Positions 28,088 to 49,581 of a stretch of 64,000 bases of DNA are shown here, piece after piece (positions within the stretch are counted from its first letter, which is position 1; every line of letters starts with the position of its first letter). Origin of the DNA: Alphaproteobacteria bacterium (GTDB lineage: Bacteria > Pseudomonadota > Alphaproteobacteria > JBFXJJ01); assembly GCA_050175015.1 (NCBI GenBank), contig JBFXJJ010000002.1:128001-192000 (forward strand), in the 5' to 3' direction. A program made the position numbers and the translations under genes. The notes beneath the pieces were generated by a model, which was not told the origin of the DNA, searched no databases, and worked only from the letters and a program-made list of their open reading frames with translations.

Positions 28088-28167
28088 TAGAAATACCCTC
28101 CTATGTTCTTTTTTTGTTCTTGACAACTGAACTTTTTATGTGATATAAAATCTGTCAGGTTCAGTAA
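28088..28167 (+). promoter_or_regulatory. sigma70 promoter with LexA box, candidate operator and +1 motif
   Basis: TAGAA-N6-TCCTA 28088-28103; GTTC-N7-GTTC 28105-28119; TTGACA 28120-28125; TG-A-TATAAA 28141-28149; CAGGTTCAGTAA 28156-28167. Confidence 0.75.
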
Positions 28168-28248
28168 CTCTTAGTGTGCCTTTTTTATATGACGTATTAG
28201 AAATAGACAGTTATAGTTTGAAGAAAGGTGTTTTTAAGGATTTTAGTT

Positions 28249-28767
28249 ATGAAAAGATTCGTTTTTTTTATTATGTTTGTTTTTTGCTTGTTTACGGGTT
28301 CGAGTGTCAGGGCAGAATATTGCTGGATGATTGGCTGTGAAGGTGCTGTCGGCTATGTTTTTTTAACGGAACCTCAGCAGTGGAGTGAGCCTAAGACCAG
28401 CATCGTTTTTAATGGCAAAGAATATAAAATATTTAATCCAGAACACACTTTTTTATTTACTAAATCAGGACTGCCTAAAATTGGTGAAGAAGTAGAACTT
28501 AACATTGGCACCCCTATCTATGAAGAAGATGAAATTATCGAACGAAGCGATATGTTCAAAAAGTTCAAGTCGGGCTTAAACGAAAATCCAGAAGAATATG
28601 GACCTAGTGATGACATATGTCTTACTTGGCCGAGTGGTTATGATGGAGAGTATCCTATGGCAGGCGGAACTATTTTAAAAATCTTAGGATATAAGACGTT
28701 TAGCTTTGATAATGAAGATTTTCTTTTTGCAAAAGTAAAAATTCTAAAAGATGGCGGAACAGATTAA
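28249..28767 (+). CDS. Exported protein, copy 1 (immunity-like)
   Basis: Sec signal ending VRA|EYC; paralog of copies 2 and 3; start placed by alignment and RBS aagga. Confidence 0.8.
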   Translation: MKRFVFFIMFVFCLFTGSSVRAEYCWMIGCEGAVGYVFLTEPQQWSEPKTSIVFNGKEYKIFNPEHTFLFTKSGLPKIGEEVELNIGTPIYEEDEIIERSDMFKKFKSGLNENPEEYGPSDDICLTWPSGYDGEYPMAGGTILKILGYKTFSFDNEDFLFAKVKILKDGGTD

Positions 28768-28848
28768 TTTTTTTAACCTTTATCTTTTTTATAAAGGTTT
28801 TTAGCTGTTAGGTTAACTTAAAAAGAATAGATTTTAAGGATTTTAGTT

Positions 28849-29364
28849 ATGAAGAGATTGTTTTTTTTAATTGTTTTGAGTTTTTGCTTGTTTACGGGTT
28901 CGATTGCCAGAGCAGAATATTGCTGGATGATTGGTTGTGAAGGTGCTGTCGGCTATGTTTTTTTAACGGAACCTCAGCAGTGGAGTGAGCCTAAGACCAG
29001 CGTCGTTTTTAATGGCAAAGAATATAAAATATTTAATCCAGAAGACACTTTTTTATTCACTAAACCAGGACTGCCTAAAATTGGTGAAGAAGTAGAACTT
29101 AATGTTGGCACCCCTATCTATGAAGAAGATGAGATTATCGAACGAAGCGATATGTTCAAAAAGTTTAAATCGGGCTTAAACGAAAATCCAGAAGAATATG
29201 GACCTAGTGATGATATTTGTTTTGACTGGCCGAGTGATTACGATGGAGAGTATCCTATGGCAGGCGGAACTATTTTAAAAATCTTAGGATATAAGACGTT
29301 TAGCTTTGATAATGAAGACTTTCTTTTTGCAAAAGTAAAAATTATTAAAGATGGAATAAGATAA
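28849..29364 (+). CDS. Exported protein, copy 2 (immunity-like)
   Basis: Signal peptide ending ARA|EYC. Confidence 0.8.
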   Translation: MKRLFFLIVLSFCLFTGSIARAEYCWMIGCEGAVGYVFLTEPQQWSEPKTSVVFNGKEYKIFNPEDTFLFTKPGLPKIGEEVELNVGTPIYEEDEIIERSDMFKKFKSGLNENPEEYGPSDDICFDWPSDYDGEYPMAGGTILKILGYKTFSFDNEDFLFAKVKIIKDGIR

Positions 29365-29445
29365 ATTTTTTAACCTTTATTTTTTTTATAAAGGTTTTTA
29401 GCTGTTAGGTTAACTTAAAAAGAATAGGTTTTAAGGATTTTAGTT

Positions 29446-29961
29446 ATGAAAAGATTGTTTTTTTTAATTGTTTTGAGTTTTTGCTTGTTTACGGGTTCGA
29501 GTGTCAGGGCAGAATATTGCTGGATGATTGGCTGTGAAGGTGCTGTCGGCTATGTTTTTTTAACGGAACCTCAGCAGTGGAGTGAGCCTAAGACCAGCGT
29601 CGTTTTTAATGGCAAAGAATATAAAATATCAAGTCCTGATGATGTATTTTTATTTACTAAACCAGGATTGCCTAAAATTGACGAAGAAGTAGAACTTAAC
29701 ATTGGCACCCCTATCTATGAAGAAGATGAGATTATCGAACGAAGCGATATGTTCAAAAAGTTCAAATCAGGTCTAAAAGAGCCATATATTGGGGTAGAAG
29801 ATGTCTGGAAAATTAGTCTTACTTGGCCGAGTGATTATGATGGAGATTATCCTATGGCAGGCGGAACTATTTTAAAAATCTTAGGATATAAGACGTTTAG
29901 CTTTGATAATGAAGACTTTCTTTTTGCAAAAGTAAAAATTATTAAAGATGGAATAAGATAA
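29446..29961 (+). CDS. Exported protein, copy 3 (immunity-like, with two divergent patches)
   Basis: Signal peptide; ISSPDDVF and KEPYIGVEDVWKISL differ from copies 1 and 2. Confidence 0.8.
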   Translation: MKRLFFLIVLSFCLFTGSSVRAEYCWMIGCEGAVGYVFLTEPQQWSEPKTSVVFNGKEYKISSPDDVFLFTKPGLPKIDEEVELNIGTPIYEEDEIIERSDMFKKFKSGLKEPYIGVEDVWKISLTWPSDYDGDYPMAGGTILKILGYKTFSFDNEDFLFAKVKIIKDGIR

Positions 29962-30001
29962 ATTTTTTAACCTTTATTTTTTTTATAAAGGTTTTTAGCT
30001 G

Positions 30002-30037
30002 GCGGCAAAGATTTTTTAGTCTTTGCCGCTTTTTTTA
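30002..30037 (+). terminator. Intrinsic terminator directly upstream of the 564-aa gene
   Basis: gcggcaaaga-N-tctttgccgc followed by a T-run. Confidence 0.8.
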
Positions 30038-30065
30038 TTTATTAAATTTTAAGGAGAATATAATT

Positions 30066-31760
30066 ATGAATAATTTGCGAACTAACGATGTTCTTTCAAA
30101 AAGACTTAAAAAAACAACCGATAAAATAGAACAAGATAAAGACTTGATTATCAAAGCCGTCGGAAAGAATGAAGATGAAAGCGGGAAAAAAACCTACCAA
30201 ATATCACACGCAGGAACTTCAAAAAGCAGTTTTTCCGTCGGTCGTCTGCAAACAGATTTTGCTGGAGACGATAAAGAAATAACCAGAGATGATTTTATAA
30301 AAAACATAAATAATATAAATAGAAATCTTTTTAATGATGGAAAAATAACCAACGATGGGCTTTTAACCTCAGACGATATTAACCAAATAAAAGAAGGGCT
30401 AGTAATCAAAGGCAACGTAAATGCTATTTCAAAGTCCGTAAAAAACAAAATTAATACGGCTTTGCAGTCAAAAGAAGGTCAAGAGATTGTTAACAAGTTA
30501 GACAAGCAGCAAGTTAACAATCTTTTAGTCGGTGTCAAAAAAACTCGTGATGCAGCATTGTCCAACCCCGATATTGCTAATAATCCAGCCTCTGCAGCTT
30601 ATGTTAATTCTGATGCTTTTATGCTTCGAATTGCTGATAATATTAACCAATATGGCTCAAATGGTCGCATGTGTGATTGGCTTAAAGGTGATAAAACTTA
30701 CATTGATAAGAAAACTAACAAGGAAAAACCTTTTGGAAACCCAATTTCAAAAGATGTTACTATTTCAGGAGATGTTCTTAAAAAATATACCGATAATTAT
30801 AAATATGCAAAGGAGCATACAAAAAACTATAATAAGCGAATTGATAATCTTGATACGGTATTAAAAGAACAAAAAGATAATCCTGCAAAAAAACAAAACA
30901 ATGAAGCTGATTTTAAACAACCAAGCGTTTTTTCAGGTTCTAAAGATATTGCAAAAAACATCGATAGCAATCTTTCTAATCCAATTGATTTTGATAAGAT
31001 TAAAACAAAACAAGATGCTATTGCTGAAACCCTTGGAACTGATGCCGCAAACGCAGGTCAGAATAACAATACAGATAACACCAGACAAGGCGATGAGACC
31101 GTTGCTTCAAACAGTTTTCTGTCTAAAGATACCGCAGCAGGTAATTTTAAAAACGGCAAAAACAATGCCAATGATATTCTTGAGAAGTTAAGCAAAAATG
31201 TCGATATTTCCTCTATAATATTAGCAAAAAGACCAGAAGAGATGACTAAAGAAGAAATGAGAGAAGCGCAAAATTTTGTTTTTGATAAAGTTTTTCACCC
31301 CAAAAGATTAGAGGTTGATGATCATATTAAAAAATATTTTGGCGTCCGCTATCCAGGAAAAACCGAATATGATGATACGGGAAGAATGATTGACACACCG
31401 TCTGTTATTAATGAACCTTTAGAACCAAGCCAGATTAAGGATAAACAAGGAAAGCCTGTAGAGCATGGACTTAAAGGCATTGCGGGATTAATCGATAATG
31501 CTGATGGAATAACGGGAGGAAAAGGCGTTGAGGTATTGCAAAAAGCCTTAAATTATCTAGGTCGTTCTTTTGGTGTTAACGATTATGATGTTCCAGATAA
31601 AATCTATCTAAGAGAACCCGTTAAAACGCTAAAAGAAGATAATATCTTGGGACCTAAAACGGCAACCGCAACTTTTGACAATCTTGTTAAAAACGGTGCT
31701 AATAATTTAACAAATGCCTTTAACAGCATTTTAAAAAAACAAAAAGACGACCTTTATTAA
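30066..31760 (+). CDS. Putative peptidoglycan-targeting protein (lysozyme-like N-terminus, PG-binding-like C-terminus)
   Basis: SKSSFSVGRLQTD (S-x-G-x-x-Q); VEVLQKALNYLG...LKEDNILGPKT..A resembles PG_binding_1; no signal peptide; RBS aaggag. Confidence 0.55.
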   Translation: MNNLRTNDVLSKRLKKTTDKIEQDKDLIIKAVGKNEDESGKKTYQISHAGTSKSSFSVGRLQTDFAGDDKEITRDDFIKNINNINRNLFNDGKITNDGLLTSDDINQIKEGLVIKGNVNAISKSVKNKINTALQSKEGQEIVNKLDKQQVNNLLVGVKKTRDAALSNPDIANNPASAAYVNSDAFMLRIADNINQYGSNGRMCDWLKGDKTYIDKKTNKEKPFGNPISKDVTISGDVLKKYTDNYKYAKEHTKNYNKRIDNLDTVLKEQKDNPAKKQNNEADFKQPSVFSGSKDIAKNIDSNLSNPIDFDKIKTKQDAIAETLGTDAANAGQNNNTDNTRQGDETVASNSFLSKDTAAGNFKNGKNNANDILEKLSKNVDISSIILAKRPEEMTKEEMREAQNFVFDKVFHPKRLEVDDHIKKYFGVRYPGKTEYDDTGRMIDTPSVINEPLEPSQIKDKQGKPVEHGLKGIAGLIDNADGITGGKGVEVLQKALNYLGRSFGVNDYDVPDKIYLREPVKTLKEDNILGPKTATATFDNLVKNGANNLTNAFNSILKKQKDDLY

Positions 31761-31798
31761 TTTATAGTATTTTGCTTATGTTCAAATTTTAAACAATA

Positions 31799-31828
31799 GC
31801 GGCAAAGATTTTTTAGTCTTTGCCGCTT
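31799..31828 (+). repeat. Second copy of the 30-bp hairpin at 30002-30031
   Basis: gcggcaaagattttttagtctttgccgctt is identical at both sites. Confidence 0.9.
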
Positions 31829-35470: not shown

Positions 35471-35902
35471 TCAGTCAATATTATTATAAAAAAGCTTATC
35501 TCCAATCTCTAAACAAGGAGCCTTTCCTCTTGCCCACAAAGGGTATTCAAAAACATCGTGAAAGATTGTTGCGCCTTTAGTTATGTCATCTACAGCGTTA
35601 TGAAGTTTTTTCAATGAAATCCTTTTGCATATATCAAAGGCTTTATCATCTTTCGGAATATTATTTAAAAGGAAATAATCATAACTATGTTTATCCCAGC
35701 AAGAAAACAACTTCGAATCCATACAAATAGTTGTCAGTTTTGTATTTGAAGATGATTTCTTTACTCTGTTAATAGCCACACAAGCCATAGCTTCCATCAT
35801 TTTTAAGGAATCATTGTGAGACATTCCATAAATAGTTTTTGCTAAAACTTGCCAATCTTTATTTTCTTCATTTTCTTGTTTTTTTTGCTTTACTTCTTCC
35901 AT
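35471..35902 (-). CDS. SleB/Hydrolase_2-family cell wall hydrolase homolog (catalytic Glu apparently lost)
   Basis: LAKTIYG, NRV, FSCW, D.TKGAT.FH, P.WA; GEARGE position reads GMSHND. Confidence 0.7.
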   Translation of the reverse strand: MEEVKQKKQENEENKDWQVLAKTIYGMSHNDSLKMMEAMACVAINRVKKSSSNTKLTTICMDSKLFSCWDKHSYDYFLLNNIPKDDKAFDICKRISLKKLHNAVDDITKGATIFHDVFEYPLWARGKAPCLEIGDKLFYNNID

Positions 35903-35930: not shown

Positions 35931-37418
35931 TTATACTTCAAAATTAGTTTCTGCCTCAAAATTGCCGCTGCAACCACGCCAATCACCTTTTGATGCCGCT
36001 CTGCCATAAGCTTTTATTCTTATCGGTTCTGATGAGATACAGCCTGCAACCGCATCTAAGCCATCATCACGACCTTTTCCGCCAGGAACCCAGTTCCGCA
36101 TCTCCTCAACAAAAGGTGTTGCTAAAACGCTTTTGTGAACATTTAAAGCTTTGTCTGCCAGCAGAGCGTCAAAAGCTTCCATAATTCTGATGTCTTTTGC
36201 TTTACGGCTGTTTTCTTCAATCACACTGCACGCAACGCCAGCCTTTGCCAATTTTTGGCGCAGGATTCCAGGTAAGAATCTGCCAATGCCATTTTTTTCA
36301 ATTCTAATTGACGGTAAAAAATATCTTGAGGCGAAAGACGCAACCTTTTGACATTGAATACTTGCAGCCTTATCACTGTCATCGGCATTGACTTCTAAAT
36401 AACGCACCCGATAAAGCCAAAGAGAACCGTCTTCTGCGGTAAATACGCAGGCAATTACACTACCATCGCCCTTGTTTGCTCCCACACCATAAGCAGGATC
36501 CCACCAGCAGGAGGCAGAAACCAGCCGTTTATCACCTAATTTTAATTCCATTTTTCCTTGAGAAAATGCAGTTTCGATTTCGTTATCAAAAATCACAAGA
36601 TTTTCGACATCAAGCCTGCCGTCCGTTATATTAACTGGCTCTAACATCATTTGACTTAAAAATGATTTTTCACCATTGCGTCTTCTTATCGCTGCTATAC
36701 GGGAGAGCGAAAAACGTTCAGGCCAGCTGCTTTGTCCTGATTCATCTAAAATCGGTATCTGCAATTTATCAAAACCCAATAAAAAAGGCTCATTATCAAT
36801 ATGAGCCTTGTCTTTTTCTGTCTGATAAATCGTATTAAACGTGTGGGGCGTTCCGATATAAAGCACCATTCCTTTCGGCGTTATTATGTAGTCAAGTTCC
36901 TTTAGTTTTTCCCTAAGATCCTTTCTTTTAAAAGACGTATCCGAATTTTTAGGAACCTCAATATCATCGCAAATAATAATATCAGCTCTTGAACCCGTGA
37001 TATTGCCGCCAAGACCTCTTGCCAAAACCGACGGATCTCTTAATTCTGCTCTTCTTGCTATGATAAAGCTGTCTTTCCCCCATTGCTCTTTTTTCAAAGG
37101 AATTAAATGACGGGTCAAATCGTGCCTTTCAATAATACGCTTGATATTACGCACCATTTTTCTTGCCAGCTCTTGATCTGCTGCCATTACTAAAATGCGT
37201 AAATCAGAATTTTGAAGCAAAACCCAAGCACAAAACAAACCAACAATCGTTGATTTTCCAGAATTACGAAAAGCCATAAGCAGAGCTTCTCTTTTCTTGC
37301 TATGCCAAATTTTAGTCAGCCATTTAACTATAATTCTTTGATGCTTCGGAATTTCAAGTCCTTGAGCTTTGTTCCAAATCCAAACAAATTCTAAAAAATC
37401 AACTTTTGTTGTCATCAT
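35931..37418 (-). CDS. Terminase large subunit
   Basis: Walker A AFRNSGKST, GSRADIIICDDIE, IGTP, WPERF, nuclease WDPA and DDGLDA. Confidence 0.9.
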   Translation of the reverse strand: MMTTKVDFLEFVWIWNKAQGLEIPKHQRIIVKWLTKIWHSKKREALLMAFRNSGKSTIVGLFCAWVLLQNSDLRILVMAADQELARKMVRNIKRIIERHDLTRHLIPLKKEQWGKDSFIIARRAELRDPSVLARGLGGNITGSRADIIICDDIEVPKNSDTSFKRKDLREKLKELDYIITPKGMVLYIGTPHTFNTIYQTEKDKAHIDNEPFLLGFDKLQIPILDESGQSSWPERFSLSRIAAIRRRNGEKSFLSQMMLEPVNITDGRLDVENLVIFDNEIETAFSQGKMELKLGDKRLVSASCWWDPAYGVGANKGDGSVIACVFTAEDGSLWLYRVRYLEVNADDSDKAASIQCQKVASFASRYFLPSIRIEKNGIGRFLPGILRQKLAKAGVACSVIEENSRKAKDIRIMEAFDALLADKALNVHKSVLATPFVEEMRNWVPGGKGRDDGLDAVAGCISSEPIRIKAYGRAASKGDWRGCSGNFEAETNFEV

Positions 37419-38147: not shown

Positions 38148-38176
38148 ATCTTTTTCCTTTCATAAAATTTAGCCAT

Positions 38177-40143: not shown

Positions 40144-40169
40144 TTTTTAATCCTTCATAAAAAAATCTT

Positions 40170-40649
40170 TTAAAGAAGTGAACCTGAAGAACCTAAGACG
40201 TTGTTATAATATCTTAAGTTATTCATAGCACTGCTGTAGTTTATTGAGTTTAAATCCATAAGATTCTGGCGCTTTTCGTTGCTTAAAGAACGAGTTACTT
40301 GAGATATTTTGTACTGATCCATTTCTTTATCATAATCAGCATCTTCATCAGATCTTTTAGCCATACCCATTTGTACTGCCGCCGAAGAACCGCCGCTTCC
40401 AACTCCAGAAGCTCCCATTGCCGCTCTTTGCGTAGCCAGTTCTGCTTTTAAAAGATTAAGCCGCTTTTTTTCTCTTGCCTCTGCTGTAGTTTTGATATTT
40501 TCAATACTAGCTTGTGCGGCTTCTTCCTGAGCAGCCTGTGTTGCTGCCACGTTTTTTGCCTGAGCTTGATACTGCTTATTAGTTTGGTATTGTCCCAACA
40601 AGCCTGTTCCAACTCCAGCAATAGCTGTCGCTGCCTGTAATGCTCCCAT
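40170..40649 (-). CDS. Internal virion protein (gp14-like)
   Basis: Gly/Ala-rich N-terminus, QRA.MGASGV..GGS motif, follows the nozzle gene. Confidence 0.6.
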   Translation of the reverse strand: MGALQAATAIAGVGTGLLGQYQTNKQYQAQAKNVAATQAAQEEAAQASIENIKTTAEAREKKRLNLLKAELATQRAAMGASGVGSGGSSAAVQMGMAKRSDEDADYDKEMDQYKISQVTRSLSNEKRQNLMDLNSINYSSAMNNLRYYNNVLGSSGSLL

Positions 40650-42559
40650 TATTCACCTACCTTTATTTTCGTTGTTACTGATAAAATATTCAAATCAAGC
40701 GGCTCATCACCCTTGACGCTCCAGATGGGCTTTTGCAAGTCCCTAATCCAGCCAAAAGCCTTAACAACAACATCTCCAGTGTACGCTGTAGGAGGACTGT
40801 CTAAAAAATCCGCCGTATCAAGATGAGGCATTAAGACGTGGCGATAACCTTTGCCCGTTGTTTCCGCCATAAACGCAGAGGTATTTTTTACCCTAAAAGA
40901 AATATCAATCAGACGATATGAACGCATCTGCATTATGCTGCTTGTTCCAGAAGTGATAACTGGCGGCAGCGGTTCTATTTGATGAAAAAAGCCAAGCCCT
41001 ACTTCTATTTGCGATACTTCATAAGGAAGATTAATGGCACCATCTAAAACGGTGCAGTCATTAATAAGAGCTTCATCGGCTCTTACCTTAACTTTTTTGC
41101 CTTCAAGATGCTCTAAACCTTTCCAAGTTTTCTTTGGCTCTTCCGAATCCCCTGTAAGAGCGCAATCCGTATGCAAATCATCGTCAAACACCTCTAAGAA
41201 ATAAGAGTCATTTCTTTTCACAATGACGTATGTGTTCCTGCCAGCGACCGCCACCGATAAAAAACGGCCATCGGTTTCAGCCAAACTCCAAGCGGTTATC
41301 TTTTCCGTACGATAATTAGTAACAAATGCCATACTGCCATCTGCCACCACAACATTTAAAAGCCTTTTAACAGCATCATAGTCCTGATCCAGCGGATCTT
41401 TAATAAGATGCTTGGAAAGCATTGCAAGATCGTTTGCCTGATATGCTTCTTCTAAATCGGTATAAATAAACTCCCTGATTTCATCACCATTAGCGCCAGC
41501 AAAAAGAGTTGCGCCGTCAACATTTAATGGCGGAACATATCTTTTCAGAATTGAACCTATTCTTGTCTGACGAGACAGCTGTATATTAGACGGCGTTAAA
41601 GGATCGCCTGTAACCATCCATTCTGAACCCGAGGTAAACACTTGTAAGTGACGTCCTGAAAAAATGGCGCAAATCGCATTAACTTGATCTGATAATATTT
41701 GAAATTCTATTGATTCATCATCAAGCCCTTCGCCCAAATCAAAGTTCATCAAATCGCTTGACTTTGACAGCCATAAACGATTAGGCAAATCTCTTGAACC
41801 ACCAATAACCAATCTGTCTTGATGGAATGTTACGGATATTGGCCAGCCTCTTAATGTCGAAAAAGCTGGTTCTTCCCAGTTTTTAGTTTCATCAGTTTCC
41901 GAGAGTTCAACTTTTACCGTTGCCGCTATTTCCGTCGCAGAATTAACAGCGGTTACAAGAACCTCACCTTCAGCCAAACGAAATCTTAAACCAATATAGT
42001 CATCACTAAAAAAATCTTTTGATGCTGTTATAGTAATATCACCCGTTGTTCCAGAAGGGGTAAAAGTTAAATCATCGTCCTCAAATTTAAAGTAAGGCTG
42101 CATTAAACTGTCATCAACTTCCTCATATTGCCATTCAGCAACCGACCAGTCAGCATCAGAAGATCTTGTTATCTTTCTAGGAGGTACATCTCTATGCGTT
42201 ACCAGAAGAGTGTCGGCACTTTGCGTCCACCTTATAGTAGAAAGCTGGTCTTCGGTCCAAGGCGTATCAAAACTTGCAATTTTAACCCCATCGAGATAAA
42301 CATCTACGGCTTCATCTTTAAAATTAAGCAGATAGACCTGCTCGGTATTGAATTCAAAGGCTACCAACCTGCCGACACCATCTAACGTGTCCAAATATCT
42401 TAAGCCGCTTCTTCTTGAAATTCCTCCTGTTGGGTGAACAAAAACATTTCTTAATTTCATCGCCCCGTTTTCATATGATCGAAGATCTCCTCTTCCCAAA
42501 AGATCTGGCGACAGCTCTCCTGAAGAAAAGCTGGTCTTAACAAGATTTAAAACGCTCAT
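40649..42559 (-). CDS. Tail tubular protein B / nozzle (gp12-like)
   Basis: SF..GELSP.L.GR.DL..Y..G, GG..RR.G, QSAD, GWP....FHQ.RL, TAW. Confidence 0.85.
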   Translation of the reverse strand: MSVLNLVKTSFSSGELSPDLLGRGDLRSYENGAMKLRNVFVHPTGGISRRSGLRYLDTLDGVGRLVAFEFNTEQVYLLNFKDEAVDVYLDGVKIASFDTPWTEDQLSTIRWTQSADTLLVTHRDVPPRKITRSSDADWSVAEWQYEEVDDSLMQPYFKFEDDDLTFTPSGTTGDITITASKDFFSDDYIGLRFRLAEGEVLVTAVNSATEIAATVKVELSETDETKNWEEPAFSTLRGWPISVTFHQDRLVIGGSRDLPNRLWLSKSSDLMNFDLGEGLDDESIEFQILSDQVNAICAIFSGRHLQVFTSGSEWMVTGDPLTPSNIQLSRQTRIGSILKRYVPPLNVDGATLFAGANGDEIREFIYTDLEEAYQANDLAMLSKHLIKDPLDQDYDAVKRLLNVVVADGSMAFVTNYRTEKITAWSLAETDGRFLSVAVAGRNTYVIVKRNDSYFLEVFDDDLHTDCALTGDSEEPKKTWKGLEHLEGKKVKVRADEALINDCTVLDGAINLPYEVSQIEVGLGFFHQIEPLPPVITSGTSSIMQMRSYRLIDISFRVKNTSAFMAETTGKGYRHVLMPHLDTADFLDSPPTAYTGDVVVKAFGWIRDLQKPIWSVKGDEPLDLNILSVTTKIKVGE

Positions 42560-43125
42560 TTACGCACCTCAACCAAAGAATAATCTTCAAAACATTTAGG
42601 ACTTTCTTGCTGCGCATCAATTAATCTGGCACGTTTAAATTCTTCTTCTGCCATCTTGGTCAAAACATCAGATCTTGTTGTGCTTTCAGTTAAAGGTATA
42701 CAAAATTCTGCCGCCAATCTTGCAATTAACACCTGCGTAAAATACGGAGGAAAACTCTTTTCATCTGGGCGGAAAATATAGGTTAAATTAACACTATCAG
42801 AATCAGTATGAAGTCTGTTTTCAACAATACGATAGTTAATTCCTCTGCCCCTATTTCCGATACCTGCCGAAATAATCCTTAAAAAATCAGATGGAAGCTT
42901 AAAAGCATTTTTAAAATCCGCCACTGGCGACGCCGCAAGTTTAGGCAGAGTTGTCTGAGCAACAGCAAAACTCCACGGATAAACTGCCAGCATTGCATCT
43001 CTTGTTGATGGATAAAGATTGGCTGCAACTTCGGCTTCAGCCGTGCCTTCATCAAAAGATGAAATGCTTGTTGCTCCAAGTTTTAATAATGCTCTTGAGC
43101 AAATAGCTATACTGCCTATAGGCAT
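42556..43125 (-). CDS. Tail tubular protein A / adaptor (gp11-like)
   Basis: ICSRAL..LG...I.SF.E, Y...RD..L...PW.FA, LP.DFLR. Confidence 0.85.
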   Translation of the reverse strand: MPIGSIAICSRALLKLGATSISSFDEGTAEAEVAANLYPSTRDAMLAVYPWSFAVAQTTLPKLAASPVADFKNAFKLPSDFLRIISAGIGNRGRGINYRIVENRLHTDSDSVNLTYIFRPDEKSFPPYFTQVLIARLAAEFCIPLTESTTRSDVLTKMAEEEFKRARLIDAQQESPKCFEDYSLVEVRK

Positions 43126-43226: not shown

Positions 43227-43484
43227 TTATTCAGCCGCCGACACAATATTTGCCATAGCAACAACACCGCTGCTATTTGATGACACATTTAAAACTGCAC
43301 CCTTTGGGGTTGTCTCATTATCAGTGTTTGCAATAACAAAATCACCTACTCTAAGAGCTTCAGATGCATCATTGAAATATCCCTCGGTCTCAACTGATGC
43401 TGCTGCATCTGCGGTTTTATACTGCCATAATGTAAAGCCGTTAGCATACGCTAAAACTGCCAAATTTTTATTATTAAAAGCCAT
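43227..43484 (-). CDS. Small virion protein after the capsid gene (decoration-like)
   Basis: LAYANGFTLW.Y.T.D....V...GYFN; RBS aaggag. Confidence 0.65.
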   Translation of the reverse strand: MAFNNKNLAVLAYANGFTLWQYKTADAAASVETEGYFNDASEALRVGDFVIANTDNETTPKGAVLNVSSNSSGVVAMANIVSAAE

Positions 43485-43513
43485 TAGTATTTTCTCCTTA
43501 TGTTTAAAAAAGT

Positions 43514-44353
43514 TTAAGCTTCAACTAAAGTTGCGGTGTCATCACACTTAATTTTGACGATACCCGTGTTATCAATCAAACACGCACCTTGACTCATTGA
43601 ATTACTGATAAAATTAGCAGCGTGATCACCGTGCCACGTAATATCGCTTTTAACGTCTTGACCTGAAGCGTGTCCAACTGCGGTTTTATGGAAAATGTAA
43701 CAGTCTCTTTCCTTAGTGTTATTAAGCGTAAGTCCTGTGTGCATCAACCATACAATACCAAGCCATTTGCGGCTTTCTGTGCCATTAAGCCAAGGCAAGT
43801 CTTCACCGACATAATCGGAATCGGAAAATTCCTTAATATTCAAAAGCTCATTCCATTGATTAACCCCAACTAGACCAAAACGCTGTCCGTCATCAGGAAC
43901 ATCTTGAGCATTAATTTTTGCAAACGCCTGCAAAATAAGACTTTTAGAAATTCCTGTTGAATAATCACCTACGCTGTTACTGGCATCAGAAAGAGCATTG
44001 ATAATAAGCTCATCGGTTTTGCGTCCTAAGGCATAAGCTCCTGCTGCGGCCACAACCTGCCTTTCATCGACGTTGGTTTTAAGCTCGTCAAGACTGTCAA
44101 CCCAATCACCTGCATAGTAATCATAAAGATTGCATTCCACAGGTGTAAAATCCATACTCATAACAGGAACAAGACCGTGTCTGGCTTTGGTTGAAGCTGT
44201 TCCCTTTCCTACTTTCTGGAAAACTGCGGTTGCTCCTTTTATATTGTTTTTGGTACGCACCATATTTCTTAGCTTAGATCCAGTACGTTGGTAAGCAGTG
44301 TGAACTTCAGCTTCAAAATGCTTCGTAAAAATTTTATCTATATTTTCTGACAT
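43514..44353 (-). CDS. Major capsid protein
   Basis: F...F.AEVH.AYQR.GSKLR..VR, D..DE.K...D.R, A.ALGRK.DELII; start ATG 44353 after RBS aggag. Confidence 0.88.
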   Translation of the reverse strand: MSENIDKIFTKHFEAEVHTAYQRTGSKLRNMVRTKNNIKGATAVFQKVGKGTASTKARHGLVPVMSMDFTPVECNLYDYYAGDWVDSLDELKTNVDERQVVAAAGAYALGRKTDELIINALSDASNSVGDYSTGISKSLILQAFAKINAQDVPDDGQRFGLVGVNQWNELLNIKEFSDSDYVGEDLPWLNGTESRKWLGIVWLMHTGLTLNNTKERDCYIFHKTAVGHASGQDVKSDITWHGDHAANFISNSMSQGACLIDNTGIVKIKCDDTATLVEA

Positions 44354-44384
44354 AATTTGCCATCTCCTAAAAAATTGAACATAA

Positions 44385-44483
44385 AAATAAAAAAGCCTAA
44401 AAGAACAGTTATGGTTAAGAAACCGCTGTCGTTTAGGCATAGAAAAACAGGGGCTTTTAATACGTCCTAAAAGTTATCCCTGT
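44385..44483 (-). promoter_or_regulatory. Structured capsid-gene leader (two hairpins with ATAA bulges, then T-tract)
   Basis: Minus strand acaggg-ATAA-ctttta...taaaag-cc-cctgt and gcctaaa...ggtt-tctt-aacc-ATAA-ctgt...tttaggc-tttttt. Confidence 0.5.
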
Positions 44484-44507
44484 AAGAAAAACGTTTTTTA
44501 AAAATAA

Positions 44508-45245
44508 CTACTGATTGCCGTAAAGTTTTTTAAACCCATCGGAAACCTTGGAAATATATGATGGGTCTTTATCTCTCCAATAACGAGGATCTTTCATCAT
44601 TGTTTTAAGCTCTTTTTCTGAAACCTCAGAACTGGCAATTTCACCCCTATTCCCAATATCAGGTTCTCCGGCTCCCATCATTCTGCTGATAGCAATAATG
44701 CCTTCGTAAGTTGTTGCTAAAGTTTCATAAATATCTTCGGGAAGATTTTTCTGTCCCCAAGATGATATTTGCCTTGAAGTTTCTCTCCAGCGCTCTTCTC
44801 CGCCAAAATGACTTATAAGCTTCTGCCGTTGTTTGTCTGCTTCAAATTCTGCCGCCATTTCTTCAATCAAAGGAATCACTCTCTCGGCGGCTAAGTCATA
44901 CACCAACTGCGCCTGCTGCGGCGTAAAATCGGCATCTAGCAGTTTTTGATTAACATCACCATCACTTTCTAAAAGCTTATGACGGGTAACAATGTTATAA
45001 CCATTAGCATCTTCGGGAATACCAAAAGCTTTTCTAAAGGTTGTCCGTTCTTGAGGATTGTTTTTATCAAATGGCAGTTTAATCATATTTGATAATTTTT
45101 TCTCAAGCTCAATATACGATTTTAAAAGTTCGTTGGCATTGATGCCGCCTGATTTATAATTCTTAAATTTTTCAGGTACGCTAAGAGCAACATCATCTGC
45201 ACCTGTTGAATCAAGGTTTTCATTCTCTAGTAAATTTTCACTCAT
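44508..45245 (-). CDS. Capsid scaffolding protein
   Basis: VPEKF, KSY.ELEKK, M.DPRYW...DP; directly upstream of the capsid gene. Confidence 0.78.
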   Translation of the reverse strand: MSENLLENENLDSTGADDVALSVPEKFKNYKSGGINANELLKSYIELEKKLSNMIKLPFDKNNPQERTTFRKAFGIPEDANGYNIVTRHKLLESDGDVNQKLLDADFTPQQAQLVYDLAAERVIPLIEEMAAEFEADKQRQKLISHFGGEERWRETSRQISSWGQKNLPEDIYETLATTYEGIIAISRMMGAGEPDIGNRGEIASSEVSEKELKTMMKDPRYWRDKDPSYISKVSDGFKKLYGNQ

Positions 45246-45269
45246 TTTTAAAATATCCTTATCTCTAAA

Positions 45270-45545
45270 TTAATTTTCATCTGCTCCCATTTTGACCATA
45301 GATTTAATATGGAAAAAAAGAGACCTCTTGCCTTCTTGATACCGTAGTTCCTCATTGCTGGCATCTTGAGGCAAAACTCTTCCTGTTGTTATTTTTTCCA
45401 AATAACTCATTACTTTTGAGCCGTCATTTCCGCTAAAAATTCGAGCAAAAGAAAGAGCAATATTCTCGCCGTTCTCTCCTTCTCGCTCATTATTTCTAGC
45501 CTCTAGGAATTCCCAACCCATAAGCTTCTTTTTCATATTCATCAC
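45270..45545 (-). CDS. Bbp19-like phage protein
   Basis: F...F....G..V..YL, L.Y.EG.R; lies between portal and scaffold. Confidence 0.65.
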   Translation of the reverse strand: MMNMKKKLMGWEFLEARNNEREGENGENIALSFARIFSGNDGSKVMSYLEKITTGRVLPQDASNEELRYQEGKRSLFFHIKSMVKMGADEN

Positions 45546-45556: not shown

Positions 45557-47224
45557 CTAAGAATTAAGTTTATTTGGAACAGGAACCGTTTCAGCTAAAG
45601 CTGCACTTTGGTTTAAATTAGGGCTACCAATGGCAGGCATAGCCTCTCCTTTGTTGTCAACTGACGCCAGCATATTAGGAATGGACTGTAATAATGCCGC
45701 AGATTGATTAGTATCAGCGCCATTTGCCATCATTATATCTTCGTCAGTTTTGATTAACGCTTCGGGAACCCCTAGCGTTCTTCCAAGCCATCTTGCCGCT
45801 TCTTTAAGATTAACCGCAGCTCCCGCCTCAGCCCCCATACCAGCAATAGACGTAAGCCACGAAAGGGTGTTGTTAGCATCTTGCTGTGCCTGCTGTCTTG
45901 CGAGCGGTGAACGATATTCAATATCAACCATATGACCATCAACCCAAATATCAGAAATTTCACCACGACGTCTTAAAATTGCAACAGCTTTAAGAATAAG
46001 CGGTGTCAGCAGCTCTGACTGTAACCTGCCATAAGTTGCGCCTAGAATTCTCGCCATTTCTGCCGAGCGCTCTAGAACCTCGGTAGCGGTCATATTAGAT
46101 GCTTCAACCTGCCCTAGTTTATCAGCTAAAAGAGCGTGTTTAATTCTGGTACGCAGGTCTTTTAAAACCAATTCGGAAATATCAAATCGCCCAGGGGCTT
46201 CAAGCGGCGTTAGCCCCTTGGAACCAACCGCTTTAGGAATAATTGCTCCTGGGATTAATTTAATGTTTGCAGGATTTAAAACCCCGTCATCATCAGCCAG
46301 CCAAATACCTGTAACTGCTATCGTCGCATTTTTTAAAACCAGCTCAACAACCTTATTAGCGGTTTTTATATCTGGCAGCGCTTTCATTATGGGGGAACGT
46401 CCATAAATCTCTCCTGGAGCTTTCTGCCACCTAAAATTAATAAAAGGCGAATTAGCAAAAACCCCTGACTTTAAAACTCTATCAAAAGCTTCATCTTTCA
46501 GCCCTAAACCGTTGTCATTATCAATAAATGCCGTATATTCAAAACCGCCTTGACTTCTAGTACTTCTTGGAACAACGGCTTCAACAACATTTACCTTAAA
46601 ATCTGGTTCTTTTTCTATTTTGGAAGATACCTGCGGTGATAACACCTTATCGCCAAAACGCTGCTTTAGATTTTGCAAAGATGTTTCATATCTTCTAAAA
46701 CTGGCATCTATCCTGCCGCTTTCGGTTTCTTCAAATGCCATTTCGAATAACGGCACAGCACAAAACCTAAAAGCCGAAATATCTCCAGACGGCGCCTCTT
46801 CAAATAATAAGGTAGCGGTACCTGCTGTTACTAAATCCAAATAACACTGATGAATTTCAATAGCAAAAGAAGAGCGATCGAAATGAGATCTGATCGTTTC
46901 GGTTGTTTTTTCCAATAACGGTGCTATTTGTTTCCGTTCTTCCTCAGATAAATCGACGCCTCCGCCTAAGCCAAACCATCTTGCCCACGGCGGAGTAAGT
47001 CTTGCAAGCATACTAGCTGCCAACTGGTCAACCGCATCGGGAGCTGTCCCATCAAAAAGGCGATCGCTGCTGGTTTTTTTAACAAAGCTAGCGGTGCTGA
47101 ATCCGCCTTCACGCTGGGGAAGAGAAAATTCATAACATTCGCTCCAGATATTTTCCCAAGCGGAACGTCTCTCCCAAGCCCTTTGGCATCTTTTTCTTAA
47201 ATTTTGAAATAAATCTTCTTCCAT
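45557..47224 (-). CDS. Portal / head-tail connector (T7 gp8-like)
   Basis: LAA......TPP...WF, DL...GT, RW....GE.YGRSP...ALPD, TATEV. Confidence 0.92.
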   Translation of the reverse strand: MEEDLFQNLRKRCQRAWERRSAWENIWSECYEFSLPQREGGFSTASFVKKTSSDRLFDGTAPDAVDQLAASMLARLTPPWARWFGLGGGVDLSEEERKQIAPLLEKTTETIRSHFDRSSFAIEIHQCYLDLVTAGTATLLFEEAPSGDISAFRFCAVPLFEMAFEETESGRIDASFRRYETSLQNLKQRFGDKVLSPQVSSKIEKEPDFKVNVVEAVVPRSTRSQGGFEYTAFIDNDNGLGLKDEAFDRVLKSGVFANSPFINFRWQKAPGEIYGRSPIMKALPDIKTANKVVELVLKNATIAVTGIWLADDDGVLNPANIKLIPGAIIPKAVGSKGLTPLEAPGRFDISELVLKDLRTRIKHALLADKLGQVEASNMTATEVLERSAEMARILGATYGRLQSELLTPLILKAVAILRRRGEISDIWVDGHMVDIEYRSPLARQQAQQDANNTLSWLTSIAGMGAEAGAAVNLKEAARWLGRTLGVPEALIKTDEDIMMANGADTNQSAALLQSIPNMLASVDNKGEAMPAIGSPNLNQSAALAETVPVPNKLNS

Positions 47225-47229
47225 AAAAA

Positions 47230-47454
47230 CTATTCTCCTAACAAATTCTTGCGTCCGTTATCAACTGAAACGTCATTCAACACACCACGCCAAGATGTCT
47301 TGATATTTTGAGCCAGCCCTTTACGGTTACGTTCAACCGTACTAACAGAAGACGTGCTATCATCACTATCGTCAGTATCATCAATTTCCGTCGTTGTTTC
47401 GGCTGTCGGCGAAACATAACTCGGAGTGCTTGGAACACTAAAAAAGCTTCCCAT
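47230..47454 (-). CDS. Small virion protein upstream of portal (gp7.3-like position)
   Basis: MG..F..P start, I.TS.RG, terminal LLGE; RBS aaggag. Confidence 0.6.
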   Translation of the reverse strand: MGSFFSVPSTPSYVSPTAETTTEIDDTDDSDDSTSSVSTVERNRKGLAQNIKTSWRGVLNDVSVDNGRKNLLGE

Positions 47455-47494: not shown

Positions 47495-47533
47495 AAAAAA
47501 ACCCAGCTGACTAACTCTAATCAACTGGGTTTT
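47495..47533 (-). terminator. Terminator in the 5' leader of the virion operon
   Basis: Minus strand acccagttga-N10-tcagctgggt followed by a T-run, between the promoter and the first structural gene. Confidence 0.75.
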
Positions 47534-47589: not shown

Positions 47590-47651
47590 TTACTGAACCT
47601 GTTATCAGATGTACCACAACTGTTCCCTAATGTCAAGGATTATTTTCTTAT
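47590..47651 (-). promoter_or_regulatory. Virion operon promoter with LexA-type box, operator and +1 motif
   Basis: TTGACA 47636-47631; 17-nt spacer; TACATC 47613-47608; GAAC-N7-GTAC 47625-47611; operator 47635-47650; CAGGTTCAGTAA 47601-47590. Confidence 0.72.
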
Positions 47652-48150
47652 TTTTTTCACTTAATAGGAATTTATACAGTTTATAGGGGGTTACAATTCT
47701 GAAATTGTGAATCCCGAGAACTCGTTTTACCGCCTCAACACAGGTAAAAAATCCTAAAGGAGCAGATACTAAAGGAACATCTTTAAGACTTGTCGCCATT
47801 ACCGTAAAGCCTTGCTCTAAGTACCAAGATGCCATATCGAAATCGCCGCAAACAGGCTGAATAATAACATCTGTTTTGTGAAGCATCGCATCAATCGTAA
47901 GCCACAGATCGCCATTTCCAAGCGTAATAAAGCAATGTCTAAAACCTTTTTTTAAAAAACGCAGCCACCATTTAGAAACATCGCCCGAAAAAACCACCAG
48001 ACAAACTTTCCAGCGGTATTTTTGCATTAAATCATTTTGAAGTTGGCAATTTTGAAGAACCATATCTTTAAACAGCTTTTTATTTAGATTCGCATTTTCT
48101 AACTTCTTCATTTTCTCGTCGAATCCAGCCAAAACAAACGATTTATTCAT
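47605..48150 (-). CDS. Phage protein with permuted papain-like (His...Cys) motifs
   Basis: VVFS, LKKGFRHCF, TCVE.VKR.LG, TP..L; start ATG 48150 after RBS ggaggt. Confidence 0.6.
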   Translation of the reverse strand: MNKSFVLAGFDEKMKKLENANLNKKLFKDMVLQNCQLQNDLMQKYRWKVCLVVFSGDVSKWWLRFLKKGFRHCFITLGNGDLWLTIDAMLHKTDVIIQPVCGDFDMASWYLEQGFTVMATSLKDVPLVSAPLGFFTCVEAVKRVLGIHNFRIVTPYKLYKFLLSEKNKKIILDIREQLWYI

Positions 48151-48359
48151 AATTAACCTCCTTAAATTATTTCTATAAAAAACGTACAAGGACTAGAACT
48201 ATCGACGTTTAAACGTGCTAGAGTTCTGCGATTTATTTTAGCAATACAATCTCCTAAGCTTGGCTCGTATAGAATATACGTCCACATAGAGATTAAAAAA
48301 TAATGCGAGGCTCTATCCCAACCAGAACACCGTAAGGAACAAACAAAAAGCACTAAAAT

Positions 48360-48746
48360 TTAATTTGATATGGCACTATTTTTCCACTCAAAAACAATCG
48401 CTCTTTGCTTAAAAACTTCATCTAAAACCCCAATCCCCTTATGCCAAAGAGTTTCCTCATAAGAGGTTGCTCCAAAACGAACATCTGGCGGCTGATTTTG
48501 CTTGCCATATTTAATTAGAACATTAAATTCTGGCGCATTTAGAATATTTTTTGCCAGCAATGATTTAACAATCAGATAAATATCATTAACCTCGCAGGGA
48601 CGAGCCGTTTTTTTATAATCGCCATCACCCCTATTTTTATAATCGGTCATCATCATACGGCAGAACCAGAACCACGCCGTTTCAGTAGAATCAAAAGGTT
48701 CGACCTCAAGATCTTCAATAAAAAAATAATTTATTTTTCGTCCCAT
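48360..48746 (-). CDS. 128-aa protein divergent from the repressor (candidate activator/antiterminator)
   Basis: PF.S.E.AWFWF, RPCE..DI, YG.....PD, LW; ATG 48746 after RBS ggaggt; function inferred from position. Confidence 0.6.
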   Translation of the reverse strand: MGRKINYFFIEDLEVEPFDSTETAWFWFCRMMMTDYKNRGDGDYKKTARPCEVNDIYLIVKSLLAKNILNAPEFNVLIKYGKQNQPPDVRFGATSYEETLWHKGIGVLDEVFKQRAIVFEWKNSAISN

Positions 48747-48763
48747 AATAACCTCCACAACTA

Positions 48764-48813
48764 GAACATATAAAGAACATTTTATTAGTACAAAAAGTTG
48801 CACGAGATGTCAA
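48764..48813 (-). promoter_or_regulatory. Promoter with consensus LexA box at the start site
   Basis: TTGACA 48813-48808; 17 nt; TACTAA 48790-48785; GTTC-N7-GTTC 48778-48764. Confidence 0.78.
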
Positions 48814-48821
48814 CCATTTTT

Positions 48822-48911
48822 TAAGATTATTTTCCTATTGACTTTTACCCTCATTTAATGGGATTATTTTCTTATAGATGTTTTCAAAAATATCTTAAGA
48901 TTATTTTTTAA
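48822..48911. promoter_or_regulatory. Three candidate repressor operators at 37-bp spacing
   Basis: TAAGA-ttattt-TCCTA 48822; TGGGA-ttattt-TCTTA 48859; TAAGA-ttattt-TTTAA 48896; TTGACT at 48838 faces the repressor gene. Confidence 0.6.
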
Positions 48912-48951
48912 GTTTTTTGATACCCGCAATTTTAATTTTTAGGATTTTTTT

Positions 48952-49581
48952 ATGAATTTTGAACAAGTTTGGCAAGCAATCGATATTTTAGCAGAACTAA
49001 ACGGACTTTCAGCATCAGGACTTGCTCGCAAAGCAAACCTTGATCCAACGGCATTCAATCCCAGTAAAAGAGTTGGAACCGACGGTCGTTTGCGTTGGCC
49101 CTCGATGGAAAGCATTCATAAAATTTTGACGGCAACGAACTGTTCTATGGAATTTTTTGCAGGACTAGTCGGTGAGGATTCCAGCAAAACAGGTAACACA
49201 ATCCCTCTTCTAGGGTTTGCGCAAGCTGGAAATGATGGTTATTTTGATGAATCAGGCTATCCTTACGGTGTTGACAGCTGGGACGGCATAGAATTTCCTC
49301 AAGTAAACGACACCAACGCCTATGCAATTGAGGTTAGCGGGGATTCTATGGAACCAGCATACCGCGAAGGTGATGTTTTAATTGTTTCGCCCTCAGAAAC
49401 GGCAAGACGTGGCGATAGAGTGGTCGTAAAAACCAAAGAAGGCGAAGTTATGGTAAAGGAGCTTAAACGGCAGACAGCTATGAAAGTTGAATTGAAGTCT
49501 CTCAATCCTGAACACTCCGACCGTGAATTTGATGCCCGTGATATTGCTTGGATTGCAAGAGTTTTATGGGTAAGCCAATAA
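48952..49581 (+). CDS. HTH plus peptidase S24 (CI/LexA-like) repressor
   Basis: SGLARKANLDPTAFN.SKR...RWPS HTH; AQAG cleavage-type site; GDSMEP (Ser) and VKEL (Lys) dyad. Confidence 0.92.
   Translation: MNFEQVWQAIDILAELNGLSASGLARKANLDPTAFNPSKRVGTDGRLRWPSMESIHKILTATNCSMEFFAGLVGEDSSKTGNTIPLLGFAQAGNDGYFDESGYPYGVDSWDGIEFPQVNDTNAYAIEVSGDSMEPAYREGDVLIVSPSETARRGDRVVVKTKEGEVMVKELKRQTAMKVELKSLNPEHSDREFDARDIAWIARVLWVSQ

Follow-up and report, generated by a model that had tools for sequence, protein, structure and literature searches.

A promoter-leader element shared by a T7-like particle cluster and a candidate effector/immunity module in an uncultured alphaproteobacterium

Bacteriocins of the colicin and pesticin type are transcribed from promoters that carry a LexA box, have a modular architecture with an unstructured N-terminus, and are released by lysis; the immunity gene is located beside that of the toxin, often on the opposite strand. 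The Q-dependent late operons of lambdoid phages feature a strong promoter, a conserved early transcribed element and, before the late genes, an intrinsic terminator. Elements resembling gene transfer agents (GTAs) are usually discussed as carriers of DNA, and their retention by the host is debated. The subject of this study is a 64,000-nt stretch (the “window”; contig JBFXJJ010000002.1, positions 128,001 to 192,000 of the forward strand) of the 2.53-Mb genome of an uncultured alphaproteobacterium (GCA_050175015.1). A T7-like cluster for head, tail, packaging and lysis functions lies intact at 35.5-49.6 kb of the window, and a second locus nearby encodes three tandem exported paralogs and a protein of 564 amino acids (aa). 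Among listed sequencing runs, a single DNA metagenome run contained the locus, and no RNA run was found. An initial annotation, made from the letters alone, had proposed that the particle cluster is co-regulated with the second locus, which was read as a cell-wall effector with its immunity proteins. Both the co-regulation and the effector/immunity reading were supported in silico, and on balance the two loci probably form one SOS-triggered regulon, comprising a particle/lysis cluster and a satellite effector/immunity module, although appreciable doubt attaches to this. From these sequences we infer that the two loci are induced together, that antitermination operates, that the effector is toxic and its neighbours confer immunity, and how delivery proceeds.

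The likeness to colicins and pesticins consists of the LexA-box promoter, the adjacent candidate immunity genes and the modular build, and release by lysis is proposed here as well. The differences are that lysis would here come from a phage-derived holin-lysozyme cluster 4-18 kb away and that the effector promoters share the leader and terminator design of the particle operon; family scans of the 564-aa protein and its paralogs revealed no colicin domains. Effectors of the type VI and type IV secretion systems (T6SS and T4SS), of which PldB is an example in the available portion of its description (PMC13736854), are similar in having duplicated periplasmic immunity-like genes, Sel1 proteins among them, and an envelope effector without a signal peptide. 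Here, however, the association is with a virion cluster, and no secretion genes were present near the family members examined. GTAs (RcGTA, CcGTA, BaGTA and, as given in the accessible part of PMC12946183, the podovirus-like FpGTA of Faecalibacterium) are likewise domesticated head-tail-lysis clusters that lack replication genes and are conserved across hosts, and a GTA-type holin with three transmembrane segments is encoded in the present cluster. They differ from it in that its ancestry is T7-like and its control is through S24 and LexA, and the present cluster is known from its genes alone. No GTA with toxin-immunity cargo in its regulon was found in the literature searched. An identity with BaGTA was considered and dropped: a review gives no T7-like features for BaGTA in the part available (PMC6899734), and no relative closer than class level was found among the genomes searched.

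The two loci are connected by their promoters. Matching promoter architectures had been described at the outset, and the match was found to comprise a TTGACA -35 element and a leader 12-mer, CAGGTTCAGTAA, at a fixed spacing. The composite pattern TTGACA-N29/30-CAGGTTCAGTAA occurred twice in the window, once in promoter P1 of the second locus (28120-28167, + strand) and once in late promoter P2 of the particle cluster (47636-47590, - strand), and in none of 100 shuffles. Across the genome, the 12-mer was present only at these two sites, and the looser pattern TTGACA-N25-34-GTTCAGT had exactly three matches, i.e. P1, P2 and a third promoter, P3, located ca. 900 nt upstream of the gene for a 465-aa paralog of the 564-aa protein (locus L002; G000 C4:171959 (-) to 169625). 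In this nomenclature, L-numbers denote related loci, G-numbers denote genomes of the sample described below, and G000 is the window's own genome. Past the 12-mer, the leaders remain alike, with N5 followed by AGTGTGCC, ACTGTACC or ACGTGCGCC. P1 and P3, aligned by eye, are ca. 80% identical over 75 nt, and in both a perfect GTTC-N7-GTTC abuts the -35 element. Because this motif was also located upstream of the organism's own lexA (contig C8) and recA (contig C2), it was taken to be the real LexA box of the organism. It recurs at 48764-48778, in the promoter of p147, a conserved gene of the particle cluster. The earlier claim of a LexA box at each core promoter was upheld at P1 and had to be qualified at P2, where the site is a near match (GAAC-N7-GTAC, 7 of 8 positions) within the spacer; a perfect box is found only at the p147 promoter, 1.2 kb farther upstream. 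A TAGGA-N6-TCCTA-like site, said to lie just upstream of each promoter, was absent as written: P1 has a direct repeat, TCCTA-N10-TCCTA, and P2 has the operator AGAAAATAATCC, which adjoins its -35 element. The pattern GAAAATAATC[CT] had 16 matches in the genome, 3 of them within the 1.3-kb control region of the cluster. Judged at the level of sequence, there is in silico support for a specific promoter/leader element, limited to three sites in the genome, that is common to both loci.

Three further observations concern these elements. A one-mismatch copy of the 12-mer, CAGGTTCAATAA, lies at window positions 18586-18597 (-). Between P3 and the 465-aa gene, a 129-aa five-helix membrane protein is encoded on the opposite strand. 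The same hairpin precedes P3 and the 465-aa gene.

A terminator stands before the payload at all three promoters. At P2, it is located between the promoter and the first late gene (47533-47498), and at P3 a hairpin lies just before the 465-aa gene. The P1 leader features a weak hairpin and a U run only; within that unit, weak hairpins follow each of the exported paralogs, and the strong hairpin at 30001-30030 precedes the 564-aa gene. The terminators that had been placed downstream of both promoters were thus present, but the first strong one after P1 comes only past the third paralog. With the candidate immunity genes before this terminator and the putative toxin gene after it, basal transcription would make immunity proteins only. 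Promoter, conserved leader, and terminator before the payload are also the components of a Q-type late operon; the differences are that the leader is unrelated and that no Q-like protein was identified, and a mechanism of this type is suggested by the layout. Antitermination control is reported for CcGTA in the accessible portion of PMC11150451, and the promoter-terminator layout would be compatible with it. The 121-nt P2 leader folds with a z of -4.3. The shared leader was also considered as an RNA structure, and this was rejected: an AGGU..(A/G)CCU hairpin is possible in both leaders, and the short folds were no better than those of shuffles (z -1.6 and -0.7).

Relatives of the particle cluster were collected by means of its portal. 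Of 599 stretches matched in a species-level genome collection, 560 were confirmed to contain a portal relative, and all synteny counts refer to the best 80 of these 560 loci with 10-kb flanks. A class sample consisted of 400 other alphaproteobacterial genomes, evenly drawn. The relatives are not statistically independent, and counts over loci or genomes are to be read with this in mind. In the best 80 loci, the portal is 56-66% identical to that of the window, and the named records are mostly from Rhodospirillales-type alphaproteobacteria. A conserved order was observed: S24 repressor (66 of 80 loci), p147 (69), p194 (72), portal (80), scaffold (76), capsid (59), tail tubular proteins A (54) and B (52), and, farther on, the large terminase TerL (36) and a hydrolase. 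The low count for TerL arises because the 10-kb flank limits the reach. Hence p194 and p147 are as conserved across the related loci as the structural genes. In the class sample, the portal was present in 75 of 400 genomes (E ≤1e-50), almost always as a single copy. The nearest sequenced phages are pelagiphages, with 30-35% identity to the portal, and a 5-kb unannotated fragment reached 58%. No published description of this T7-like alphaproteobacterial cluster was found in the literature searched. By its gene content, the cluster is a chromosomally fixed, replication-less T7-like element that has been domesticated.

The layout of P2 recurred in 36 related late promoters, each consisting of an operator, TTGAC(A), a -10 region, a leader, a GC hairpin, and a gene whose product begins MGGFF. 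The related leaders read ATCAACGCCACAGnTGCGCC in GC-rich genomes and TTCAGTtAAC..aGTGtatCC in AT-rich ones, and the position of the leader in P1, P2 and P3 matches that of this conserved leader. A GAAC-N7-GAnC site often follows the hairpin; at L008, L012, L017, L018, L021, L022, L029, L042 and L045, GAAC-N7-GA(A/T)C or GAAC-N7-GTAC follows the leader terminator and precedes the first late gene. Independent support for the promoter link was provided by other genomes, as duplicated promoter units were found at two of the 36 loci checked, and the copies border cargo insertions. In L083, from Terasakiella, the promoter-leader-terminator unit is present three times: after p194 (5505-5690), upstream of an effector gene, where it reads through an antisense Sel1 gene (7203-7390), and upstream of the portal (9556-9740). 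In L027, it is present twice (1227-1410 and 5851-6035), and the second copy, past a cargo insertion, restarts the capsid genes. By eye, the remote effector gene of G386 has an operator-like AGGAATAATATCC upstream and GAAC-N7-GATC just before its start codon. Profiles built solely from the relatives' promoters retrieved P2 at E 4.4e-5 and, weakly (E 0.19), a promoter upstream of an operon on contig C21 of the window's genome that encodes an ankyrin-repeat protein and a short effector paralog. As side observations, the promoter of that operon is P2-like and contains a palindromic GGAATAAATTCC site, and short paralogs on contigs C1 and C8 have near-LexA boxes of the form GTTA-N7-GTTC.

The second line of evidence comes from the 564-aa protein. 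Its C-terminal ca. 200 residues are shared by four more proteins from the same genome (465, 281, 249 and 259 aa). A family profile built from these five C-termini was searched against 1.84 billion proteins and yielded 216 representatives; 82 of these were scanned for domains, with PG_binding_3 detected in 63, PG_binding_1 in 21, Ntox44 in 5, LysM in 3, phage lysozyme in 2, and Phage_Mu_F in 1. In an AlphaFold2 (AF2) model, the predicted local distance difference test (pLDDT) score was >95 at residues 368-564. This C-module comprises an A-subdomain of ca. 100 aa without a known match and a PG_binding_3-like fold. Its best fold matches were GH108/PG_binding_3 proteins: Sen1395 aligned over 86 residues at Z 8.8 with a root-mean-square deviation (rmsd) of 2.8, Brucella SagA aligned over 70 residues at Z 8.5 with an rmsd of 1.8, and NMB1012 followed at Z 8.3, the next row being at Z 5.9; Foldseek alone returned weak rows with the same proteins on top. 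The 564-aa sequence had no Pfam match even at E up to 5, the cut-off for PG_binding_3 (PF09374) not being reached; one paralog from the same genome matched PG_binding_1 at E 0.005, below the cut-off, and a comparison of the C-module with PDB sequence profiles gave nothing meaningful. The modelled structure points to a peptidoglycan-binding fold for the C-terminal module.

Joined to this module are N-domains of several classes. Class I (HSYLVYR..GGP) was found in the 465-aa paralog, in cluster-embedded genes at L053, L063 and L100, at L103 of the portal-less genome G308, and in 13 listed representatives. Class II was found in the 564-aa protein, P0007, P0017 and L102. Further classes are GH24-like, M23, Ntox44, and others. 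Class II has the invariant pattern E36..S54..S57-G59..Q62-D64..N194-Q195, and its conserved motif E36..SGFSVGRxQxD..NQYG is at most reminiscent of a lysozyme or transglycosylase. The initial description of a signal-less protein with lysozyme-like and peptidoglycan-binding motifs was therefore borne out in part: by eye there is no signal peptide, and the binding fold is predicted, but neither a lysozyme family nor a lysozyme fold was detected in the 564-aa protein. Full-length homologs were confined to its own genome, since of 7,997 scored candidates only two passed, both from that genome, and a comparison across 41 genomes likewise gave a full-length match in the source genome alone. That the 564-aa family is polymorphic, with variable N-domains joined to a constant peptidoglycan-binding C-module, is supported in silico by the sequences compared.

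This architecture recalls the MuF polymorphic toxins (Jamet et al. 2017, PMC5576092). As presented in the available sections of that paper, these toxins are also encoded among phage morphogenesis genes, combine a constant module with variable domains, and are accompanied by small putative immunity genes; for them, as for the present family, the proposed time of action is the release of the particle or later. The constant module of the MuF toxins is an N-terminal MuF head protein, whereas that of the present family is C-terminal and PG_binding_3-like; in line with the single Phage_Mu_F match among the 82 relatives, family scans did not find this domain in the 564-aa protein or its paralogs from the same genome. 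The carrier also differs, being a temperate phage there and a replication-less chromosomal T7-like element here, and the exported or membrane-bound neighbours of the present family point to a periplasmic target.

Those neighbours provide the third line of evidence. The three tandem exported paralogs upstream of the 564-aa gene were confirmed; they have a period of 600/597 nt, are 83-91% identical in amino-acid sequence and 92-94% in nucleotide sequence (first 300 nt), and possess Sec-type N-termini (..ARA|EY) as judged by eye. At L083, the effector is accompanied by three tandem exported Sel1-repeat paralogs (85%, 48% and 43% identity). Single Sel1 proteins are found beside effectors at L034 and L010, two Sel1 proteins at the remote locus of G039, and two exported paralogs (74% identity) at L059. 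Five-helix membrane proteins occur in tandem at L063 and L100 (two copies each) and also occur at L053. The class I N-domain has a small membrane protein encoded adjacently on the opposite strand at all 5 of the loci examined, including that of the 465-aa paralog, and the other N-domain classes are accompanied by Sel1 proteins or exported paralogs. Because the type of neighbour seems to track the class of N-domain and the neighbours are repeatedly duplicated, the sequences display the pattern expected of toxin-immunity pairs. The accessible part of PMC13736854 describes an analogous case, the periplasm-acting effector PldB with its three Sel1-like immunity proteins (PA5086-5088). By this analogy, the triplet likely comprises candidate immunity proteins. 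Paralog 2 had two outside homologs, 42-45% identical. Searches of Pfam, PHROGs and NCBIfam assigned the exported paralogs to no family, and a protein atlas gave unnamed clusters only; an AF2 model of paralog 2 (pLDDT 78) had a best Z of 3.6 in a fold search and no match in Foldseek.

Family members were also sought in the related clusters. Within 10 kb of the portal, they were found at 7 of the 80 loci (11 open reading frames (ORFs) with a narrow profile, 13 with a broad one). All of these ORFs are on the virion strand, and all but one occupy slots between promoter and portal, scaffold and capsid, or the 85-aa minor head protein (p85) and tube A; the one outside the cluster, L053 3590-5410, lies upstream of a lysyl-tRNA synthetase (LysRS) gene. 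The G365 gene is flanked by TerL and the terminal hydrolase, whereas those of G039 and G386 are hundreds of kilobases away from the portal. The combination of cluster, peptidoglycan-binding protein and immunity-like neighbours, for which a scan of relatives had been suggested, was seen at 7 of 80 loci and additionally in G365.

A mechanism consistent with these features can be proposed for the regulon. DNA damage would remove LexA and the S24 repressor, and the late-type promoters, each with its TTGACA -35 element and shared leader, would fire. RNA polymerase departing from them would become terminator-resistant, as at the Q-type late promoters of phages, and read-through would carry it into the virion genes and also, from P1 and P3, into the effector genes. 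The holin and lysozyme would lyse the producer, releasing particles and effector together, and neighbouring cells without the exported immunity proteins would have their envelopes attacked by the effector. The effector modules would be cargo that is usually embedded in the element and that was displaced here by three host genes, keeping its copy of the promoter.

The delivery step admits more than one version. Free release, in the manner of a bacteriocin and by the element's own lysis genes, would fit the data equally well as travel inside the particle. A stricter form, in which the capsid carries the 564-aa protein or its relatives as substitutes for gp15/gp16 and ejects them into the target periplasm, with the exported paralogs protecting sister cells, is considered unlikely but not negligible. 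It would account for the absence of large core proteins from a cluster with only a weakly matching gp14-like protein, for the encoding of family genes among structural genes on the virion strand, and for the helical or disordered, low-confidence prediction of the N-terminal two thirds of the signal-less 564-aa protein; in addition, the constant module of a polymorphic toxin usually marks its delivery route, according to the available text of PMC5576092. In the class sample, family members were detected in 9 of 400 genomes (E ≤1e-8). Six of these nine (G039, G055, G072, G106, G365 and G386, the matches in G072 and G106 being weak) bear the portal, compared with 75 of 400 in the sample as a whole, and this favours the single-regulon reading. 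Against packaging, only these six of the 75 portal-bearing genomes have the family. G068 has no portal or other virion genes, yet it retains the effector C-module, fused to a p194-like domain, along with S24, the hydrolase and dihydroorotate dehydrogenase (DHODH); by its gene content, this locus is what is left of the element, stripped down, at an unchanged chromosomal position. No homolog of the C-module was present in 50,697 phage records, no homology of the 564-aa protein to the T7 internal core proteins gp15/gp16 was found, PHROGs giving only a non-specific hit (E 0.0018), and no result ties the constant module to the portal or capsid. An essential structural role is disfavoured by the lack of the family from most clusters and by the survival of the effector in a remnant devoid of virion genes; against obligate packaging, the same facts argue only mildly. 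The initial suggestion of a displaced GTA entry enzyme was weakened by the same distribution (6 of 75 portal-bearing sample genomes and no sequenced phage). The broader proposition, that this widespread particle is an SOS-fired protein weapon besides or instead of a GTA, with capsid-loaded toxins, kin immunity arrays and control through copies of one antiterminated late promoter even where the toxin module has moved away, is regarded as rather doubtful.

A structural explanation, in which the family consists of virion- or lysis-associated peptidoglycan hydrolases and their neighbours serve superinfection exclusion or are unrelated, is judged improbable. Peptidoglycan binding combined with lysozyme or M23 domains is the architecture of endolysins and virion-associated lysins, the G365 gene adjoins the terminal hydrolase, and the C-module is fused to a p194 domain in G068. 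On the other hand, 73 of 80 loci have no family member within 10 kb, the clusters already carry a lysozyme, a holin and a SleB-like hydrolase, a simple lysin is hard to reconcile with the Ntox44 class and with the classes paired with membrane proteins, and tandem duplicated exported neighbours are typical of immunity genes, as with the three of PldB in the portion of PMC13736854 cited above.

Secretion genes of the host were examined in the same context. A VirB4-like ATPase is encoded in the source genome at G000 C9:17669-18151 (-), inside an 832-aa frame, and thus at least part of a T4SS is present; TssC was not found in that genome. None of the genome's five family members is on the VirB4 contig, six neighbouring proteins scanned at the other two portal-less loci contained no secretion-system families, and, as the initial annotation required, no family member was seen in a T4SS or T6SS context among the loci examined. 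The short paralogs at L003, L004 and L005 (G000 contigs C8, C1 and C21) contain little beyond the C-module, and each adjoins a membrane-anchored ankyrin-repeat protein near integrase remnants. The idea that the second locus is an independent SOS-regulated bacteriocin-like or T4SS-delivered module, its promoter resembling P2 through LexA and chance, could draw on the VirB4-like gene, on these three paralogs away from the cluster, and on the failure of the relatives' promoter profiles to find P1, but it is judged improbable given that the shared element is a -35 sequence and leader at fixed spacing, not a LexA box, with three genome matches and none in 100 shuffles, that the family is embedded in related clusters, and that the L083 effector has its own copy of the late promoter.

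Several points weigh against the single-regulon reading itself. The profiles made from relatives' promoters miss both P1 and P3, so that the connection of these two to the family leader is made through within-genome identity and an alignment by eye; P1 and P3 are moreover paralogous copies and count as one event. By composition, the 12-mer alone would be expected 0.3 times per genome, and the argument therefore needs its fixed distance to TTGACA. The triplet has no known fold or family, and analogy is the only argument for its role in immunity. No catalytic family was detected for the N-domain of the 564-aa protein, and a profile of its four homologs finds nothing in the PDB. Slots in the clusters also hold unrelated cargo; thus, embedding alone could reflect insertion hot spots. 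Finally, no dedicated antiterminator was identified, and p147 and p194 match nothing known.

The features of the two loci are collected in Table 1. In keeping with the initial annotation, the gene content is that of a replication-less T7-like virion without large ejection proteins: the late region from 47454 to 35471 (-) is unbroken, and no proteins of gp15/gp16 size, replication genes or integrase were found between 23 and 55 kb of the window. The order of genes is 74-aa protein, portal (Head-tail_con, E 1e-132), Bbp19-like protein, scaffold, capsid, 85-aa protein, tube A, tube B, gp14-like protein, a 363-aa fibre-like protein with tail-fibre similarity confined to its N-terminus, DUF6127, lysozyme, holin, 96-aa protein, TerL and hydrolase. 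Three unrelated host genes, encoding DHODH, a HAD hydrolase and a GGDEF protein, separate the cluster from the second locus, as had been described. The cluster is flanked by PNPase, a nitronate monooxygenase-like gene and DUF6782 in one set of neighbours and by NUDIX, MFS, HAD and class I LysRS genes in the other. The LysRS gene (53612-55198, -), upstream of the element, recurs beside L036 and L053, and the DHODH gene (34266-35396, -), downstream of it, recurs at L101; their recurrence beside related clusters suggests one ancient chromosomal site.

Table 1. Features of the second locus and of the particle cluster, in window coordinates.
Feature	Position	Strand	Remarks
LexA box GTTC-N7-GTTC	28105..28119	+	Abuts the -35 of P1
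Promoter P1: TTGACA, -10 region, leader CAGGTTCAGTAA-N5-AGTGTGCC, then U run	28120..28180	+	
Exported paralog 1, 179 aa from GTG	28228..28767	+	Likely start is ATG at 28249
Exported paralog 2, 171 aa, candidate immunity protein	28849..29364	+	
Exported paralog 3, 171 aa	29446..29961	+	
Strong intrinsic terminator hairpin, 13 bp and T run	30001..30030	+	Between paralog 3 and the 564-aa gene
564-aa effector candidate	30066..31760	+	Class II N-domain 1-~360; constant C-module 368-564
Second copy of the 30001-30030 hairpin	31798..31827	+	Downstream of the 564-aa gene
Cell-wall hydrolase (Hydrolase_2/SleB-like), final cluster gene	35471..35902	-	31 of 80 related loci
Large terminase (495 aa) and upstream 96-aa protein, possible small terminase	35931..37705	-	
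Lysis block: GTA_holin_3TM holin, phage lysozyme, DUF6127	37743..38893	-	
Fibre-like protein and gp14-like internal virion protein (weak match)	39052..40649	-	
Tail tubular proteins B and A	40649..43125	-	
85-aa minor head protein, major capsid, scaffold, Bbp19-like protein	43227..45545	-	
Portal (555 aa) and 74-aa first gene of late operon	45557..47454	-	
Intrinsic terminator between P2 and late operon	47498..47533	-	
Late promoter P2: operator AGAAAATAATCC, TTGACA, near-LexA box in spacer, leader CAGGTTCAGTAA-N5-ACTGTACC	47590..47660	-	
p194, conserved protein	47605..48189	-	Invariant H, C, C, E
p147, ~105-aa conserved core, candidate regulator	48360..48803	-	LexA box 48764-48778 in own promoter
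Divergent CI-like S24 repressor	48952..49581	+	Present at 66 of 80 related loci

The two conserved proteins encoded ahead of the late operon were also examined. The invariant residues of p194 are H85, C86, C150 and E152, and the core of p147 contains an invariant RPC..D. Neither protein was assigned to a family in Pfam, PHROGs or NCBIfam, and neither had a match among PDB sequence profiles; for p194, the protein atlas gave a weak lead to NlpC/P60 (score 0.77). The fusion found in G068 (L101, G068:C2:58000-67000) is a 376-aa ORF at 4184-5314 (-) that joins a p194-like domain to the effector C-module; it sits between the S24 repressor and the SleB-like hydrolase, beside DHODH. This fusion hints that p194 may be an enzyme domain rather than a regulator.

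What is new in the present locus is the apparent wiring of candidate effector/immunity cargo to copies of a particle's late promoter, and it suggests that domesticated particles may also serve bacterial warfare. The promoter-leader-terminator unit, copied before cargo, is a compact regulatory device. If the proposed regulon is real, the catalogue of polymorphic toxins would gain a new delivery-linked constant module and several novel toxin/immunity domains. The idea can be tested in cultured relatives that possess embedded versions of the effector, including Terasakiella, Magnetospirillum and Caenispirillum. Toxin-immunity cargo tied to the particle's promoter would then give a competitive benefit, kin-selective killing at lysis, and such a benefit could explain why the element has been retained.

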